DNA from: Planctomycetota bacterium
GTDB lineage: Bacteria; Planctomycetota; UBA8108; SXIK01
Assembly: GCA_965223265.1 (NCBI GenBank)
Contig: OZ244999.1
Span: forward strand, 3,136,001 to 3,200,000
Length of the DNA stretch: 64,000 nt
Direction: 5' to 3'
The notes beneath the pieces are model-generated. The model saw only the letters and a list, made by a program, of their open reading frames with translations. It was not told where the DNA came from and did no database searches. Positions 13,186-22,910 of the stretch are shown piece after piece. Position numbers and translations under genes: made by a program. Each line of letters begins with the position of its first letter. Within the stretch, counting starts at the first letter, position 1.

Positions 13186-15750
13186 TTAGTGATTGAAGAG
13201 AAACTCCTTGGTGTTCACGAGCGCCCAGATGATGTCCTCGAAAGCCTCTCGCGGTTTCTCAGTCTTTTCGAGGTGGGTCAAGGCAACTTTCGTCTCATCG
13301 CCTGTCGGAGCACGAGAGTAGACCCAATAGTAGAGATCCTCGACACGCTTCTCGACAGGCCTCTCGGTCTCCTTCGCGAAGGAGGCTGCACGGCCTGCGT
13401 CGGCCGTCAACATATCGTGGATTTCCTTCGAGTTGAGGAGATGGAGGCTCTGCGCCAGACTTGCGTCCTGTGAACGTTCGCACTCACACGAACTGTCGCC
13501 CTTCGGCTTGCCGAACACTTTCAGAAAGTAGTTGTCGACGCCGGCGTCCGGCAACTGAAGTGCTCGCGTCCCCGCCGGCAGGCCGGCAAACGTTCTCTTG
13601 TTGTCCGTTACCTGGTGCAGGGCGTCGTAGAGGACTTCCGCTTTCAGGCGCTGTGGGTAGTACCGCGAGTAGTTCTGTTTGTCCTTTTGGTTGTGCTCGT
13701 TCGGGAGCGCGCTCAACTGATAGGTACGTGACCGAGTGATGGTCCGCACCAGTTCCTTGAGGTCGAAGCCACTTTCGATGAATTGGCTCGCGAGAGCATC
13801 CAGCAGCTTTGGGTGAGATGCTGGATTGGTGAGCCGCAGATCGTCTTCTGGCTCGACAAGGCCACGGCCGAAGAAGTGCTTCCAGTAGCGATTGACGAGG
13901 GCGCGAGCAAAGAATGGATTGTCCTCGGAACCCATCCAACTCGCGAGTTCTTGGCGCGGGTCACGATCGGCTGCGATCTGGAGAGCCGTTCCTCCCAGTC
14001 CCGCCGGTCGCAGCTTCTCGCCCGAACGTGGATTGGTTGCGGTTGCAATACCACGCTTATGATAGATCCGCGGCTCATGGCGCGCCGAGACGCCGCGCCG
14101 CCCGTCTTTCTGGCCGACTTGGGAGAAGAACGCCGCGAAGCTGTAGTAATCCTTCTGGCTCCAGATCTCGAACGGATGGTGGTGACAGCGGGCGCATTGA
14201 ATGCGAAGCCCGAGAAAGAGCTGGGCCGTGTCCTCGACGCGCTGCTCTTGAGTCCGCACCGACTTGAACCAGGTGACGGGCGGATGGCGGACGACGTCAC
14301 CGCTGGCAGCAACGATCTCGCGCACGAACTGGTCGTATGGCTTGTTTGCCAAGAGGGCTGCGCGGATCCAGCCGTAGAACGCATAGGTGGCGCGGAGTTC
14401 TTGGTCGTTGAACTTTTTGTTGCGTAGCACTGCGCTCCACTTGTTGGCGAAGTTGTCCGCGTAGTCGGTGCTGGCGACGAGTCGTTCGATGAGCGCCTTC
14501 CGCTTGTCGGAGGACGTGTCAGCCAAGAATTCGCGCGCTTCGGGAGCCGTCGGCAACCGGCCGGCGATATCGACGGAAACGCGACGCAGAAATGCCTCGT
14601 CAGTCGCCAAGTCGGACGGTGGGATTCCGAGCGTCTCAAGCTTGGCGAAAATGTGTTCGTCGATGAAATTGTTCGCGGGCGGTAGTTCGACCGGCGCGCC
14701 GAGTGGGACGCTGGCACGGAAGACGCCGACGTTGCCTTGATAGCGCACCATGACAGCAACGACACCCGGCAACGTTCTCGTCTCGACGAGACCATTGGCA
14801 TCCACTTCAGCCATCTCGGTGTCGTTCGATTCGTACTGCGCCATGCGCGTGACATCTTCCATCGTGCCGTCGCTGTAGTGCGCCAAGACACTCAGCTGTT
14901 GCGGCTGATTCTTTTCCATCGTCCGCTCGGTGGGAAAGACTTCGATGCCGACCACCGTCGGGTCGTCGGCTGAGCCGTAGGGCATGCCCTGGCGCATCCA
15001 GCGACGCAGGAGTCGATACTCGTGCGACTCGCGTGTGATCCGCTCGCCGCCGCCGTGCGGCGCTTCGTTGGTCGCTTTGCGCAGAAGCAGGCTGTGCTCG
15101 GGAGAGAGCGGCGACACACGTCGCCCGCGAGACTCGTGGACGAGAAACTCGTAGTCCTCGTCGGGATAGAAGCCGAGCAGCGACAGACGAAAACCGTTCT
15201 GTCCGCCGGATTTGCCGTGGCAGCCGCCACCGTTGCAGCCGTACTTCGTAAAGATCGGGACGATCTGATTTGGAAAGTTCGTTGGCACCTCGGTGTCAAA
15301 CGCGACGACCTCAACTTCCAGCTCGGAGCGAAGGGCGTCCGTCTTTTCCTGCTCAAGAAGAGCGATGACGCTGGTCTTACCGTTGGCGAGAGGCGTGACG
15401 TAGCCGCTGTCGCTCACCTCGACGATGGCTTCCGGCGAGGTCGCGTAGGTGACGAGGTGCGAGATATCAGTCTTGGCTCCGTCTGCACCGATGCCAGTGG
15501 CGACCAGCTGGCGACGAGCGTCCCGTCCGCGCAGAAGGTGGCCATTCCTTGGCGCCAGTTCGATCGAAATCAAGTCGCTTGGAAGGGAGAGTCGGACGGC
15601 TTCGCTGGTCTCAGATTCCGGCTTGGCGTTCACAGCCGTGAACGCCAAAACGGCCACGAACAGGGTCGCCATCGGGACCGCGTTGACGACTGGGCGCCTA
15701 GTTTTGGGCTCAACACGAACGGAGTTTATAGACCGTGCCTCGGGCATCAT
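13186..15750 (-). CDS. DUF1549/DUF1553 domain protein with Ig-like domains
   Basis: CNGGGCHGKSGGQNGFRLSLLG, NNFIDEHI, DEAFLRRVSVDIAGRLPT, CARCHHHPFE, VNRYWKHFFGRGLV, CECER, EDIIWALVNTKEFLFNH. Confidence 0.93.
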   Translation of the reverse strand: MMPEARSINSVRVEPKTRRPVVNAVPMATLFVAVLAFTAVNAKPESETSEAVRLSLPSDLISIELAPRNGHLLRGRDARRQLVATGIGADGAKTDISHLVTYATSPEAIVEVSDSGYVTPLANGKTSVIALLEQEKTDALRSELEVEVVAFDTEVPTNFPNQIVPIFTKYGCNGGGCHGKSGGQNGFRLSLLGFYPDEDYEFLVHESRGRRVSPLSPEHSLLLRKATNEAPHGGGERITRESHEYRLLRRWMRQGMPYGSADDPTVVGIEVFPTERTMEKNQPQQLSVLAHYSDGTMEDVTRMAQYESNDTEMAEVDANGLVETRTLPGVVAVMVRYQGNVGVFRASVPLGAPVELPPANNFIDEHIFAKLETLGIPPSDLATDEAFLRRVSVDIAGRLPTAPEAREFLADTSSDKRKALIERLVASTDYADNFANKWSAVLRNKKFNDQELRATYAFYGWIRAALLANKPYDQFVREIVAASGDVVRHPPVTWFKSVRTQEQRVEDTAQLFLGLRIQCARCHHHPFEIWSQKDYYSFAAFFSQVGQKDGRRGVSARHEPRIYHKRGIATATNPRSGEKLRPAGLGGTALQIAADRDPRQELASWMGSEDNPFFARALVNRYWKHFFGRGLVEPEDDLRLTNPASHPKLLDALASQFIESGFDLKELVRTITRSRTYQLSALPNEHNQKDKQNYSRYYPQRLKAEVLYDALHQVTDNKRTFAGLPAGTRALQLPDAGVDNYFLKVFGKPKGDSSCECERSQDASLAQSLHLLNSKEIHDMLTADAGRAASFAKETERPVEKRVEDLYYWVYSRAPTGDETKVALTHLEKTEKPREAFEDIIWALVNTKEFLFNH

Positions 15751-16197
15751 GCACTTTCTCCCGCGTCGGACGTCGTAACGTATCGAACAATCACAGTTTA
15801 GCGTATCGCGACGTGACGATAACACGGATCCGGCTGGACGCGCAAGAACTTTGGGCGGGCGTAAGCGTCTCTCGGGCGTGCATCGCCGGTCGCTGGCGCT
15901 GCGCTGGGACCGCTGCCAGCCGCCGTCCGCATCGGTTGTCGATGTGGGCCGCGTGTGGTCTGTCGATTCAGCGCTTGGCTTGAGGTTCCCGACAGAGTGC
16001 GCGTTTGGGATACGAACGCAAGGACCGCTTTACATTCTTGAGCCTCCTCAACCTGTTGTGTCGCTTTGTAAATGTTTTTGTTTTAATGGTTTGAAGATCT
16101 TGTGCGGGATGGAGCGACGTTTGCTTCTTGTTTTGTCTCTGCACGAGTCCTTTCGTGGGTAAATCGCTGACCAGAGTCTCCATAAGGGGGGAGAGCT

Positions 16198-19078: not shown

Positions 19079-20560
19079 CTAGGCAAGGATTTTGTTGACC
19101 ACGTTACCGCCTACATCCGTGAGGCGAAAGTCGCGGCCTTGGAAGCGATACGTCAAGCGTCGGTGGTCGAAACCAAAGAGGTGCAGCAGCGTTGCGTGGA
19201 AGTCATTTACGTGGATTGGATCGTCGACGACGTTCCAGCCGATCGGGTCCGTGCGGCCGATCACTTGGCCGCCTTTGACGCCGCCACCAGCCATCCACAT
19301 CGAGTAGGCGAACGGGTGGTGGTCACGTCCCGTGTTGTACTTCCGTGAGCCTCGGTTCTCCCCAAGGGGCGTGCGGCCGAACTCCGAACCCCACACGACC
19401 AGAGTGTCATCCAAGAGTCCGCGTGTCTTGAGGTCGCGCAGAAGGGCGGCGATCGGTTGGTCCGCCATCGTCGCGTTGTAGCGCAGCTCAGGGTCCAGAT
19501 TGCTGTGATGATCCCACGACGCATGATAGACGTTGACGAAACGGACACCGCGCTCGACGAGACGTCTCGCCAGCAGGCAGTTGGTGGCGAACGAGCTGAA
19601 CACCCCCTGGCCGCTGCCGCGACCGCGGAGTTTCGGCTCCGGTCGACCGACGCCGTAATCCTCCAGCGTCCTTTGGCTCTCGTTCGACACGTCTATGAGC
19701 TCTGGTGCCGACGACTGCATGCGGAAAGCCAGTTCGTACGAGGCGATGCGGCTCGAGATTTCTGGATCCTGGACGGTCGAGAATCGCTGCCCGTTGAGTG
19801 CCCTAAGTGTGTCGAGACTCCGCCGCTGCACGTCGCGATCAACGCCCTTGGGATTGCCGAGGTTGAGAACCGGATCGCCTTGATTCCGAAACAGTACACC
19901 TGCGTAGGTCGAGGGCATAAAGCCGCTCGTCCAATTGGATGCGCCGCCACTAGTACCGCGACCGGCAGTGAGGACGACGTATCCCGGGAGATTCTCAGAC
20001 TCAGAGCCTAGCCCGTAATTGAGCCACGAGCCGATGCTCGGAAGGCCGAAGCGCGGCACCCCGGTGTTCATCATCAACTGCCCGGGATGATGATTGAACG
20101 CGTCGGTGTGCATGGAGCGGATCAAACAGATGTCGTCGGCGCACGAACCGAGATGGGGCAGCAGATCGGAAAGCTCCATGCCACAGCGACCGTGACGCTG
20201 GAATGTCCGCTTCGTCCCCAAGAGGGTCGCAGTCTCTTTCTGGATGAACGCGAAGCGCACATCTTTCGTCATCGACTCCGGTAGCTGTTTTCCGTGCAGT
20301 CGGTTCAGCTCGGGCTTTGGATCGAAGAGATCTAACTGGCTTGGCGCGCCCGCCATGAAAATGAAGATGCAATTCTTCGCGGTGCCAGCGAAATGGCCGG
20401 CTCGCGGTGCCAGGGGGTCTGTTCGTCCGGCGGGGTCGTTTGCTGCAAGGAGCCCGTCACGCGCTAGGAGTGAGGCCATCGCGACGGTGCCGATGCCGCT
20501 AGCCGACGTGGCGAGAAAACTTCTTCGAGTTGTGTCTACGACGCGTTCGCACGATTCCAT
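19079..20560 (-). CDS. DUF1501 domain protein (Tat-exported, sulfatase-like)
   Basis: TRRSFLA twin-arginine leader, CIFIFMAGAPSQLDLFDPKP, CLLARRLVERGVRFV, WDHH, SEFGRTP, GRDHHP, RLTDVGG. Confidence 0.95.
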   Translation of the reverse strand: MESCERVVDTTRRSFLATSASGIGTVAMASLLARDGLLAANDPAGRTDPLAPRAGHFAGTAKNCIFIFMAGAPSQLDLFDPKPELNRLHGKQLPESMTKDVRFAFIQKETATLLGTKRTFQRHGRCGMELSDLLPHLGSCADDICLIRSMHTDAFNHHPGQLMMNTGVPRFGLPSIGSWLNYGLGSESENLPGYVVLTAGRGTSGGASNWTSGFMPSTYAGVLFRNQGDPVLNLGNPKGVDRDVQRRSLDTLRALNGQRFSTVQDPEISSRIASYELAFRMQSSAPELIDVSNESQRTLEDYGVGRPEPKLRGRGSGQGVFSSFATNCLLARRLVERGVRFVNVYHASWDHHSNLDPELRYNATMADQPIAALLRDLKTRGLLDDTLVVWGSEFGRTPLGENRGSRKYNTGRDHHPFAYSMWMAGGGVKGGQVIGRTDPIGWNVVDDPIHVNDFHATLLHLFGFDHRRLTYRFQGRDFRLTDVGGNVVNKILA

Positions 20561-20618: not shown

Positions 20619-22910
20619 TCACTCGCCCGAGTCCAGGTGGAATTGCGGCGCTCCGGCGAAGCCGGGCGTCTCGCCTTCGACGACATCTAAGATCTGGTCG
20701 GCGGGAAGGTCACGTAGGAGTTGAGTGTGTCCCGACGGCCAGTGGATCTCCACTTCGTCCACTTGCGCGGCCGTGCCCAACCCATAGTGCAAAGTTCGGC
20801 TTTGACACGAAAGATAGGCGCCGCCGCAGAGTACACTGCGCCACTGATTTGTCCCGGCTGCTTGAACTCGAACTCGCGCGCCGATGGCGTCGCCATGACT
20901 GCGAGTGCCCCGCAGCCGAAGCTGAAGCCAGTGACCTGTGGCGCCACGGCTGATGAGAATCGACGCAGGTTGTGCGTAGTTTTGGATCACGAAATCGAGG
21001 TCGCCGTCGTTGTCGAGGTCGGCGATAGCCAAACCGCGTGCGTCCTCGATGCGGTCAGCAGCGTTGACCCCAGCGACGTCAACGAGTTGGCCACCGTCGT
21101 TACGAAAGAGAGCATTGTTTTCGTAACCGTTGAAGGATTTGTCGCCGACGTGAATGAACGAGCTGACATCGCCGTCAACTATAGAACGCCGACCGACGTT
21201 CTCCAGAAAAGTCGGTCACAAATCATGACGGTCTTTCCCCGAAATGAAGCCGTTAGTTGCGTAGAGATCGAGGTCGCCGTCGTTGTCGTAGTCTAGAAAG
21301 CCAGCGCTCCAGCTCCAGCCGGTATTGTCCGTCCCAGCCGCACTCGCCACGAACGTCCCGTCGCCTTGGTTGCGGTAGAAAACGTTGCCGGACATCATCT
21401 CGTAGACGATGTCGAGGACGTCATTCCGAAACAGCATCGAGACTGGCCAAGGTGCCGGCGCCGGGTATGCGCGCTGGCGAATCATCCAGCGTGAGTTAGA
21501 GGTCATGGCCGCGACGAAGAGGTCTGGATAGCCGTCGTTGTCGAAGTCACCCCACGAAGCGCTCATGCTAGCGCGTCGGGCGGTCAACCCAGCCTCTCGA
21601 GTCACGTCGTCGAACGTGCCGTCGCCGCGATTTCGATAAAGCACATCGAAGCCGAAATCGTTGGCGACGAAGAGATCCACGTCACCGTCGACGTCGAAGT
21701 CCGCCGCCGAGCATGCGAGGCCGAAGCCGGAGTGATCAACGGAGGCCGCAGCTGCAGTCTCGCGAAATGTTCCGTCCGCGTTGCCCATAAAGAGCGCGTT
21801 GGGTGCGGCGTTGAGCGCCTGGTGAGGCGGATCGGGCGAGCACAGAGTCAGATTACAGCCGTTGACGATGAAAATGTCGAGGAATCCGTCGGCGTCGAAG
21901 TCTGCGCTGCAGACGCTCGTTGTGTGGCGTGTTGGGGTTAAGCCGACGTCGGCGGCGACGTCGGTAAAAGTACCGGTTTCGTTTTGGAGATAAAGAATGT
22001 TGGCCCCGTCGAGGCGGCCGACGAAGATGTCTTGGCGGCCATCGTTGTCGAAGTCTGCGATGAGTGCCGATCGCGACTTGCCCGGCAGCAGTGCGTCAAC
22101 GCCGGCCGATTCCGTCGTGTCACGGAACGTGCCGTCTTGCTGATTGAGAAAGAGGCTACAGTGGTCTCCGTTGACGAAGTAAAGGTCGACCCAGCCGTCG
22201 CCGTCGACGTCGCCGACAGCTAGTCCAGACCCCGCGGGGTAACGTTGGAGGCGACCCTGTCGGTCGGCGACGCCGTCGATGGCGGAAAGATTGGAAACGC
22301 CACGTTCGACGGCTTCCTCGGAAAATCGCACCTGGTCTTGAGCCACGATCACTGGCGTCGAGGCGTGCTCGGAGACGATTTTCCATTCGCCCGTCGTGTC
22401 GCGTCTGCAGACGACCGCCAGCGAACTCTCCTGGCACACGTCCCTTCGATCCTTACCCGTCCCACAAAGGCTGAACGAAAGTGTGGCGTGGGCTTCGCCA
22501 TGCCGAATCAGAAGTTCGTCGATCGTCGCTGCCACGCGGCGGACCACTTGAAACTTCTCCAGCAAGGCGCGTTTGCTCTCCTGCCACTCCTGCGTGTCAG
22601 CGAGCTCTTTCGTGTAGAGGCTGCTAATGCCCTCGAGGTCCCGCCGGGCGTGTTCTTGGGGGTAACGACGGTGCAGTAGCTCGTTTAAGGGGTTTACGTA
22701 GTCTCGTTTCGTTCTTTCCCACGAACCACACCCCGCCATGAGAAGAGCGAGGGTGGCGCCGAGCAAAAGTGTTGGCAGTCCGTGCTGCGGCTGAGGTCGA
22801 GCACACCGCGAGGGACTTGAAGCGAAGGGAAGCGAATCGATCACGAAACGAATCGGATGCGGCCTCAACAACGAAGAGCGTTCATCTCCCATCACGAGAT
22901 GGGGGTTCAA
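20619..22910 (-). CDS. CRTAC1/ASPIC-UnbV family FG-GAP lipoprotein interrupted by one in-frame UGA (21216-21218); 763 aa if read through
   Basis: ORFs 21216-22910 and 20619-21032 are in the same frame. The 61 intervening codons are stop-free and translate as family-like sequence (PTFLENV...KSFNGYENNALFRNDGGQLVDVAGVNAADRIEDARG). FG-GAP DxDxDG repeats, ASPIC GAYLSCQSRTLHYGLG...IHWPSG, lipobox-like MAGC. Start uncertain. Confidence 0.85.
21190..21218 (-). promoter_or_regulatory. Stem-loop at the in-frame UGA (candidate SECIS-like or recoding element)
   Basis: The minus-strand RNA reads U-GACCGAC-UUUUC-UGGA-GAAC-GUCGGUC-G. This gives a perfect 7-bp GACCGAC/GUCGGUC stem plus a UUC/GAA upper stem and a UGGA loop. 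The loop is closer to the UGA than in canonical bacterial SECIS elements. Confidence 0.45.

Follow-up and report, generated by a model that had tools for sequence, protein, structure and literature searches.

A conserved in-frame UGA, very probably a selenocysteine codon, in a beta-propeller gene family of Planctomycetota

The stretch of DNA considered here (the window) comprises 64,000 nucleotides of a planctomycete genome (Planctomycetota bacterium, assembly GCA_965223265.1, contig OZ244999.1, positions 3,136,001 to 3,200,000; a genome of 9.18 Mb in one contig, with 60.8% G+C), and its reverse strand holds a gene of the CRTAC1/ASPIC family that is interrupted by a single in-frame TGA codon, the subject of this report. 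The whole coding sequence occupies window positions 20619..22892 (-), about 757 codons counting the interrupting one, and runs from the furthest-upstream ATG in frame (22892-22890; the true start may lie more internally) to the terminal TGA at 20621-20619 that ends the CRTAC1-like gene. Translation of 20619-22910 on this strand gives a 764-codon frame whose sole interruption is the TGA at 21216..21218 (residue 509 of P0001, the read-through product), in the context ...NGFISGKDRHDL-TGA-PTFLENVGRRS..., with no other stop or frameshift across 2.27 kb. Open reading frame (ORF) listing cuts the gene into two, 21216..22910 (564 amino acids, aa) and 20619..21032 (137 aa), and public gene calls likewise break genes of this type at the internal TGA. 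The 61 codons between the two ORFs lack a start codon, yet encode conserved family sequence. An original prediction, made from the DNA letters, had described an in-frame UGA splitting a CRTAC1/ASPIC gene whose frame stays open into the ASPIC part, and had considered the 61 "intergenic" codons family-like; translation bears out both observations.

The encoded protein has several recognizable parts. A lipobox-like LMAGC motif, read from the sequence, ends a hydrophobic signal segment at 22728..22742 (-), its Cys codon being 22728-22730; the Cys of LLMAG-C is kept, and followed by x-x-W-(E/D/A), at the N-terminus of ten orthologues read by eye (P0012, P0016 and 8 others). The sequence, whose start codon is uncertain, suggests a lipid-anchored exported protein of about 750 residues. 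An N-terminal alpha+beta domain (P0001 residues 8-142, 22317..22721, -), without a Pfam match, is delimited by its modelled secondary structure, with helices 8-32 and 51-62 followed by four long strands, in which we have the impression, taken as no more than that, of a likeness to NTF2/SnoaL-like folds. Then come an FG-GAP beta-propeller rich in Ca loops, with repeated D-x-D-x-D-G loops (21243..22250, -), recognized by Pfam and by structural matches, and, downstream of the interrupting codon, a UnbV_ASPIC domain of beta-sandwich type (20688..20888, -). In P0001, Pfam scores FG-GAP_3 at 173.4 bits (six stretches) and FG-GAP at 73.5 bits, both before the TGA, and UnbV_ASPIC (PF07593) at 70.8 bits over residues 619-685, after it; all three scores exceed their cut-offs, and FG-GAP repeats followed by PF07593 are what defines the CRTAC1/ASPIC family. 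An NCBIfam scan of P0001 matched no families.

An AlphaFold2 model built from a 55-sequence alignment shows one predicted fold across the TGA (mean predicted local distance difference test score, pLDDT, 90.4; predicted template-modelling score 0.92). Murine CRTAC1 ranks first among its PDB matches (9etn_A, E 2.2e-30, template-modelling score 0.57 by query and 0.73 by target), and the next matches are the FG-GAP propellers of PL11 rhamnogalacturonan lyases, fungal N-acetylglucosamine lectins and integrins. If the TGA is read as selenocysteine (Sec), residue 509 of the model belongs to an insert that separates the ASPIC domain from the last propeller blade, where the residue follows strand 504-507 and forms the first residue of helix 509-518; this placement at a helix N-terminus is only tentative because model confidence at the site is moderate.

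The interrupting codon recurs in relatives of the window's gene. In a six-frame search of 61 related genomes with P0001 (threshold E<=1e-60), all 67 matches, found in 24 of the 61 genomes, hold exactly one TGA, a count that is exact only for loci whose site was read, and in 30/30 fetched loci the TGA stands at the same aligned site, past the last propeller blade. This conservation extends down to about 35% protein identity, and the annotated proteins of two database orthologues (71% and 65% identity) stop at this very residue (...DRFDL and ...DRDDL). Sec (U) forms fall into three subfamilies: that of the window, with ...DL-U-(P/M)xF(L/V)ENVGRRS; a second with ...DDL-U-SFFWRQVVS, comprising proteins of about 1300 aa, some with C-terminal sequence resembling tetratricopeptide repeats; and a third with ...HDL-U-AEFN(S/T)GAV, to which a further copy in the window's own genome belongs. 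Across the phylum, an even draw of 301 genomes gave a match at E<=1e-50 in 63, with three candidates scored per genome; at least one TGA occurs in 86 of the 101 resulting rows, no stop in 13 and only TAG in 2, the figure of 86/101 again being exact only for loci whose site was read, here the single locus L150. Named records carrying the TGA at this very site comprise a Planctomycetia metagenome-assembled genome (MAG), a Pirellulaceae MAG, a Planctomycetota MAG and one Akkermansiaceae (Verrucomicrobiota) MAG; a search of genome contigs returned mostly distant homologues from other phyla, not close orthologues.

These data bear directly on the most mundane explanation, an inactivated gene or an assembly error, in which the TGA would be a nonsense mutation private to this genome or a base-calling error. 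Public gene calls do end at the TGA, and although the assembled contigs of three public runs covering the site show 0 differences at this base, these runs represent two samples of one study that is possibly the source of the assembly, and hence are not independent. Variable residues without a conserved TGA, the pattern of a private mutation, are nevertheless not what the relatives show: the same codon occupies the same site in all 30 loci read in other genomes, down to about 35% identity, and the remaining 2.27 kb carry no further lesion. We regard mutation or error as barely credible.

Several loci met in these searches deserve mention in their own right. Of about ten ASPIC paralogues in the window's genome, two are Sec forms, the second (C1:5755064; L051:2563-2565, +) reading ...NGWITGKKSHDL-U-AEFNTGAV... 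in a 1054-aa frame, with a 7-bp GGUC hairpin, and being followed by a fatty-acid-desaturase-like ORF; at L050, an orthologue of this paralogue, an AurF-like di-iron oxygenase and a desaturase come next. In another genome (G159:C141:42964-47514), two divergently oriented Sec-type ASPIC genes adjoin, one of them being L150; one gene of the pair is flagged with 2 TGA, and the homologous site and a 7-bp GGUC hairpin were confirmed there. The Akkermansiaceae sequence (L059, Akkermansiaceae bacterium UBA7890) belongs, as a Sec form, to the large clade (...GDL-U-SFYWRQVVSQ...), and a quick tree places it among planctomycete sequences, which could be due to interphylum transfer or a binning error.

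Past the UGA, the messenger can form two local structures. One is an 8-bp hairpin of the selenocysteine insertion sequence (SECIS) type, AGAACGUC-GGUC-GGCGUUCU (21183..21202, -), delimited by conservation and covariation, whose GGUC tetraloop (21191-21194) begins at nt 25 (the U of UGA being nt 1). The other, alternative stem pairs GACCGAC (21211-21217) with GUCGGUC (21191-21197) around a UGGA loop with inner pairs (21191..21217, -), that is, G2-C8 with G22-C28. The two folds are mutually exclusive because the 3' arm of the alternative stem contains the GGUC loop. The GGUC loop is invariant in 30/30 loci, where it is found 21-28 nt past the U of UGA, between complementary arms. In 15 tetraloop loci, 92.4% of alignment cells are paired in the GGUC hairpin and all 7 pairs show compensatory change, a level reached by 0/500 shuffles, while sliding the 3' partners by 1-3 columns lowers pairing to 23-42%; the 12 loci of the close clade give 91.7% paired cells and compensatory change in 5/7 pairs (0/500 shuffles as high). 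The 15 large-clade loci, with a GGUCG loop and 6 bp, are 100% paired (23/500 shuffles as high), a single pair varying among AU, GU, GC and UA. For the alternative stem, the 12 close-clade loci give 82.1% paired cells, 0/7 compensatory pairs and 500/500 shuffles as high; its pairing is largely due to invariant letters, namely the UGA itself and the 5' arm and loop of the SECIS-type hairpin. The other two subfamilies have different sequences just after the TGA (UGAAGYUUYUUCUGG and UGAGC.GA.UUCAA), and the alternative stem was rejected as the SECIS. The stem with a UGGA loop on which the original prediction had centred is hence real, as the minimum-free-energy fold of the isolated RNA, and lacks the covariation of a functional element; the accompanying worry that the loop lies only about 10 nt from the UGA disappears because the functional element is the overlapping 8-bp GGUC hairpin. 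As a negative control, homologues whose residue at the site is Glu, Asp, Cys or Ser were examined, and 0/6 have a GGUC loop at that distance. Two same-phylum Glu/Asp forms (L141 and L136) keep a hairpin at the same place with a GGUGA loop instead of GGUC(G), perhaps as the remnant of an earlier SECIS, perhaps because the peptide W-R-E-V-I-A-R is conserved.

The genome also holds the machinery for Sec insertion. On its contig (C1), tRNA-Sec (C1 6669901; 70.3 bits; SeC with anticodon tca according to ARAGORN), selA (C1 6642782; 548 bits), selB (C1 7168194; 324 bits, or 355.8 with a C-terminal piece) and selD (C1 3460739; 309 bits) all score above their cut-offs, answering the question of whether the Sec genes exist at all; as originally stated, none lies inside the window. 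The selD match (C1:3460739-3461653) falls within an open frame of 790 aa, against 311 positions in the model, and this excess length suggests a fused or extended SelD. Among the 61 relatives, selA exceeds its cut-off in 58, including all 24 that hold the selenoprotein family; with selA so widespread, a phylogenetic profile against the Sec machinery did not discriminate and was dropped. An altered genetic code, with TGA sense throughout, would explain the open frame and draws on that alone. A reassigned code is excluded because TGA is the commonest stop of long + strand frames (959/1624) and terminates the selenoprotein gene itself; furthermore, each homologue carries exactly one TGA, selA, selB and selD are free of internal stops, and the genome has 60.8% G+C. 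Its probability is in our judgement negligible.

The same genome provides positive controls. A scan for TGA followed by GGTC at 17-30 nt, flanked by at least 5 bp and with an open frame on both sides, gave 96 matches, mostly short-stem noise; filtering for long frames and a stem of 7 bp or more leaves the two ASPIC genes, one gene of the Molybdopterin family, a CMD/AhpD-like gene, a small ORF and C1:972166. The Molybdopterin-family gene, resembling formate dehydrogenase (FDH) alpha (C1:8400141; ...NCSRA-U-HAPTVAGL..., PF00384 258.7 bits), and the CMD/AhpD-like gene (C1:8525443; C-H-Y-U, PF02627 45.5 bits) each have one TGA with a GGUC-loop hairpin, and the FDH-like hairpin matches Rfam SECIS_3 with 61.4 bits (E 3e-12), just below the gathering score of 63. 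Another match to the CMD family, also with one TGA, lies at C1:7570098-7570283. The remaining two scan matches are of other kinds. C1:972166 (7-bp stem, 162 + 61 open codons) was judged by eye to be wrong-frame sequence. The small ORF (C1:3487289; L151) encodes an N-terminal hydrophobic stretch and a WD40 repeat scoring 42.9 bits. Its in-frame TGA (...AVAVDDG-U-NFDCYLVEV...) precedes a 9-bp hairpin whose GGUC(G) loop is at nt 21; no TGA-bearing orthologue appeared in 40 relatives, and it stands as an unverified selenoprotein candidate.

It is on the hairpins and the machinery that a more serious alternative turns, programmed termination or Sec-independent read-through, in which the gene would mainly yield a truncated propeller of N-terminal domain and FG-GAP blades, now and then a longer isoform through near-cognate read-through, and the hairpin would serve as a stimulator or switch, not as a SelB site. 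The UGA-containing alternative stem is the most stable local fold and is paired in four-fifths of the close-clade cells, gene callers annotate the truncated form, and every selenoprotein gene is expected to lose some translation to termination at its Sec codon. Set against this are a GGUC loop, a distance from the UGA and a stem covariation of the SelB type, recurring in the genome's own FDH-like and AhpD-like genes; the lack of covariation in the alternative stem and its restriction by the differing post-TGA sequences of the other subfamilies; the presence of selA in every genome holding the family; and the 198 codons downstream, whose reading frame is conserved and whose product is part of a single predicted fold. 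We consider termination or Sec-independent read-through improbable as the principal fate of this codon.

We conclude that the TGA at 21216-21218 is very probably a canonical bacterial Sec codon, in a family of predicted exported beta-propeller lipoproteins. The original proposal of Sec in an exported beta-propeller has thus gained a conserved TGA, a covarying SECIS-type hairpin (the outcome of the covariation check it recommended), complete machinery and FDH-like and AhpD-like controls in the same genome. A ribosome nearing the UGA would unwind the 5' part of the mRNA and melt the alternative stem, freeing the GGUC hairpin, 17-36 nt downstream of the UGA, for the C-terminal domain of SelB; SelB would carry Sec-tRNA(Sec), Sec would be inserted, and translation would proceed into the UnbV_ASPIC domain. 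Competition by release factor may give short and long isoforms as a by-product.

Some observations weigh against this conclusion. The "1 TGA" of a search row may simply mark where a gene really ends, as happens in two further ASPIC paralogues of the window's genome. The isolated 40-nt RNA favours the alternative stem by 1.8 kcal/mol (-12.3 vs -10.5 kcal/mol). No Rfam SECIS model (SECIS_2-SECIS_5), nor any other Rfam family, matched the ASPIC hairpins of L022, L051, L031, L024 and L059 at E<=10, which is expected since Rfam models include family-specific coding sequence. The predicted structure is only moderately confident around the residue in question, with pLDDT of about 72 and 64 over residues 501-520 and below 50 for 520-529, and we know of no redox or catalytic role for this fold. 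Lastly, the Cys homologues that classically mark a selenoprotein are scarce, Cys being found at the site in only 1/119 database homologues and 1/13 no-stop matches in the phylum.

The residues that replace Sec are of interest beyond the scarcity of Cys. In 119 database homologues of the C-terminal half, many of them distant and poorly aligned, the site is occupied by Glu in 31, Val in 13, Thr in 10 and Cys in 1, the Cys form being P0076 (...NGWISGKRKHDL-C-LDF...). The well-aligned no-stop matches of the phylum read DDL-E-SFFWREVI (L136, L138, L144) and DDL-D-SFFWREVI (L141), and others DIR-S-LTWRQMV (L147) and KDY-C-TQFW (L145). Among representatives of 1.84 billion proteins, the top 150 are dominated by giant multi-repeat proteins and a handful span the site cleanly, with Gly (P0179, P0257), Asp (P0174), Ser (P0217) or Glu (P0202). 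Across all homologue sets the residue is mostly E, D, G, S, V, I, M, F or W. The expected alternation of a conserved TGA with Cys is therefore only faintly realized: the TGA is conserved, and Cys, seen in two forms, gives way mostly to Glu, Asp, Gly and Ser. No conserved Cys partner for a selenenylsulfide was seen in the close clade when orthologue translations were read by eye, without counting.

A maximum-likelihood quick tree of 60 rows gathers all Sec forms in one 54-row clade (Shimodaira-Hasegawa-like approximate likelihood-ratio test, SH-aLRT, 100) made up of three subclades, each mixing Sec and non-Sec forms, so that the Sec state needs at least 5 changes. The tree nests the Glu/Asp trio within the Sec rows (SH-aLRT 96), and L138 sits on a very long branch, probably reflecting a poor translation. 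A single clade of the 15 Sec rows, a group chosen after seeing the tree, was not rejected by the approximately unbiased test (p 0.218). Within the phylum the Sec and carboxylate motifs compare closely, DDL-U-SFFWRQVV vs DDL-E/D-SFFWREVI. At neutral pH a selenolate is anionic like a carboxylate, and a thiol is mostly protonated. From the occurrence of Glu, Asp, Ser, Gly or rarely Cys in the same motif we infer, as a speculative and rather doubtful possibility, that Sec here might be an anionic residue interchangeable with Glu/Asp, not a stand-in for a redox Cys, and might have the role of nucleophile or base, or bind a metal or substrate, in a functional site where propeller and ASPIC domain of this putative extracytoplasmic lipoprotein meet. 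If so, the ASPIC/UnbV/CRTAC1-like proteins of Planctomycetota would be enzymes or metal-binding proteins, and the family would represent a case of Sec/carboxylate exchange that searches for Cys pairs systematically overlook.

The gene's surroundings offer no conserved partner. Directly downstream, beginning 58 nt past the selenoprotein stop, is a gene for a DUF1501 protein (19079-20560, -), and further off one for a PSCyt2/PSD1 (DUF1549/DUF1553) protein with a Big_2 domain (13186-15825, -), both families being typical of Planctomycetota. The flanks of 12 loci were compared in search of an operon partner; they differ, with acyl-CoA dehydrogenase and TonB receptor genes in L025 and L026, for example, nothing is shared for the window's clade, and the DUF1501 adjacency is absent from the orthologous loci among them.

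Precedent for this family is sparse. Kim et al. (2016; PMC4807772, Table S9) list four gene pairs of the same domain make-up, split by TGA, from the same phylum, three of the four positive in bSECISearch, with Gly in the nearest public homologue. These pairs are listed only, without alignment, distribution, hairpin analysis or a Glu/Asp/Cys comparison, and their likeness to the window's gene is one of domains and description, as the table gives identifiers only; ASPIC, UnbV and FG-GAP occur 0 times in the main text of that paper. In full-text literature searches, Table S9 was the sole relevant prior mention of a propeller/ASPIC selenoprotein. A term search of the main text of a 2026 review of prokaryotic selenoproteomes gave neither Planctomycetes nor propellers (PMC13188914). 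BSepDB covers 111 selenoprotein families (PMC13326102), and the portion of its supplement that was searched, which possibly lacks the family list (Table S2), has no ASPIC, FG-GAP, CRTAC1 or VCBS entry. The family is thus large and nearly undescribed, a candidate listed earlier without being characterized, in a phylum that the selenoprotein literature searched otherwise passes over. The gene in the window is a clear new member, and the comparisons made here extend well past the earlier list.

The recoding mechanism itself is textbook; what is unusual is the type of protein, a propeller that is probably an exported lipoprotein. A conserved Sec points to a functional site in the ASPIC/UnbV/CRTAC1 family and gives experimenters a residue to mutate. 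Because public gene calls cut these genes in two, counts of "FG-GAP only" and "ASPIC only" domain proteins in these genomes are distorted. Moreover, current selenoprotein prediction methods lean on Sec/Cys pairs, according to one account (deep-Sep, PMC12013277), and a site at which Glu, Asp, Gly and Ser outnumber Cys exposes a blind spot of this approach: methods requiring such pairs would tend to miss the ASPIC selenoprotein family.

Set beside known systems, the window's protein shares with CRTAC1 and its relatives (murine CRTAC1, 9etn; bacterial "CRTAC1 family protein") the order of FG-GAP propeller and UnbV_ASPIC domain, with a phmmer E-value of 3.5e-28 and about 19% identity. It differs in its additional N-terminal alpha+beta domain and lipobox and in the Sec-bearing insert, a stretch that phmmer leaves unaligned to CRTAC1. 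To our knowledge, no enzymatic function has been assigned to CRTAC1 or to the window's protein. Its RNA element resembles the SelB-dependent SECIS of the fdhF type (Rfam SECIS_2, RF01988; SECIS_3, RF01989) in being a hairpin within the coding sequence just past the UGA, with a GGUC apical loop closing a G+C-rich stem 6-8 bp long. In ASPIC genes the loop begins 21-28 nt past the U of UGA, against 22 in both the Rfam SECIS_2 consensus (...UGCaGGUC.uGCa...) and the genome's own FDH-like gene, a spacing that agrees with that of the E. coli fdhF element. The differences are an unrelated sequence outside the loop, the absence of an evident bulged U and, in the window, an alternative stem that competes for the loop nucleotides. 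Finally, as with known bacterial selenoprotein families (FDH alpha, AhpD-like, peroxiredoxin, thioredoxin-like and others), there is one Sec, a SECIS after the UGA and an occurrence confined to genomes with the Sec pathway; whereas most of those families are cytoplasmic redox enzymes, or ones exported by the twin-arginine route, with abundant Cys homologues, the window's protein is a predicted beta-propeller lipoprotein whose homologues mostly carry Glu, Asp, Gly or Ser in place of Sec.

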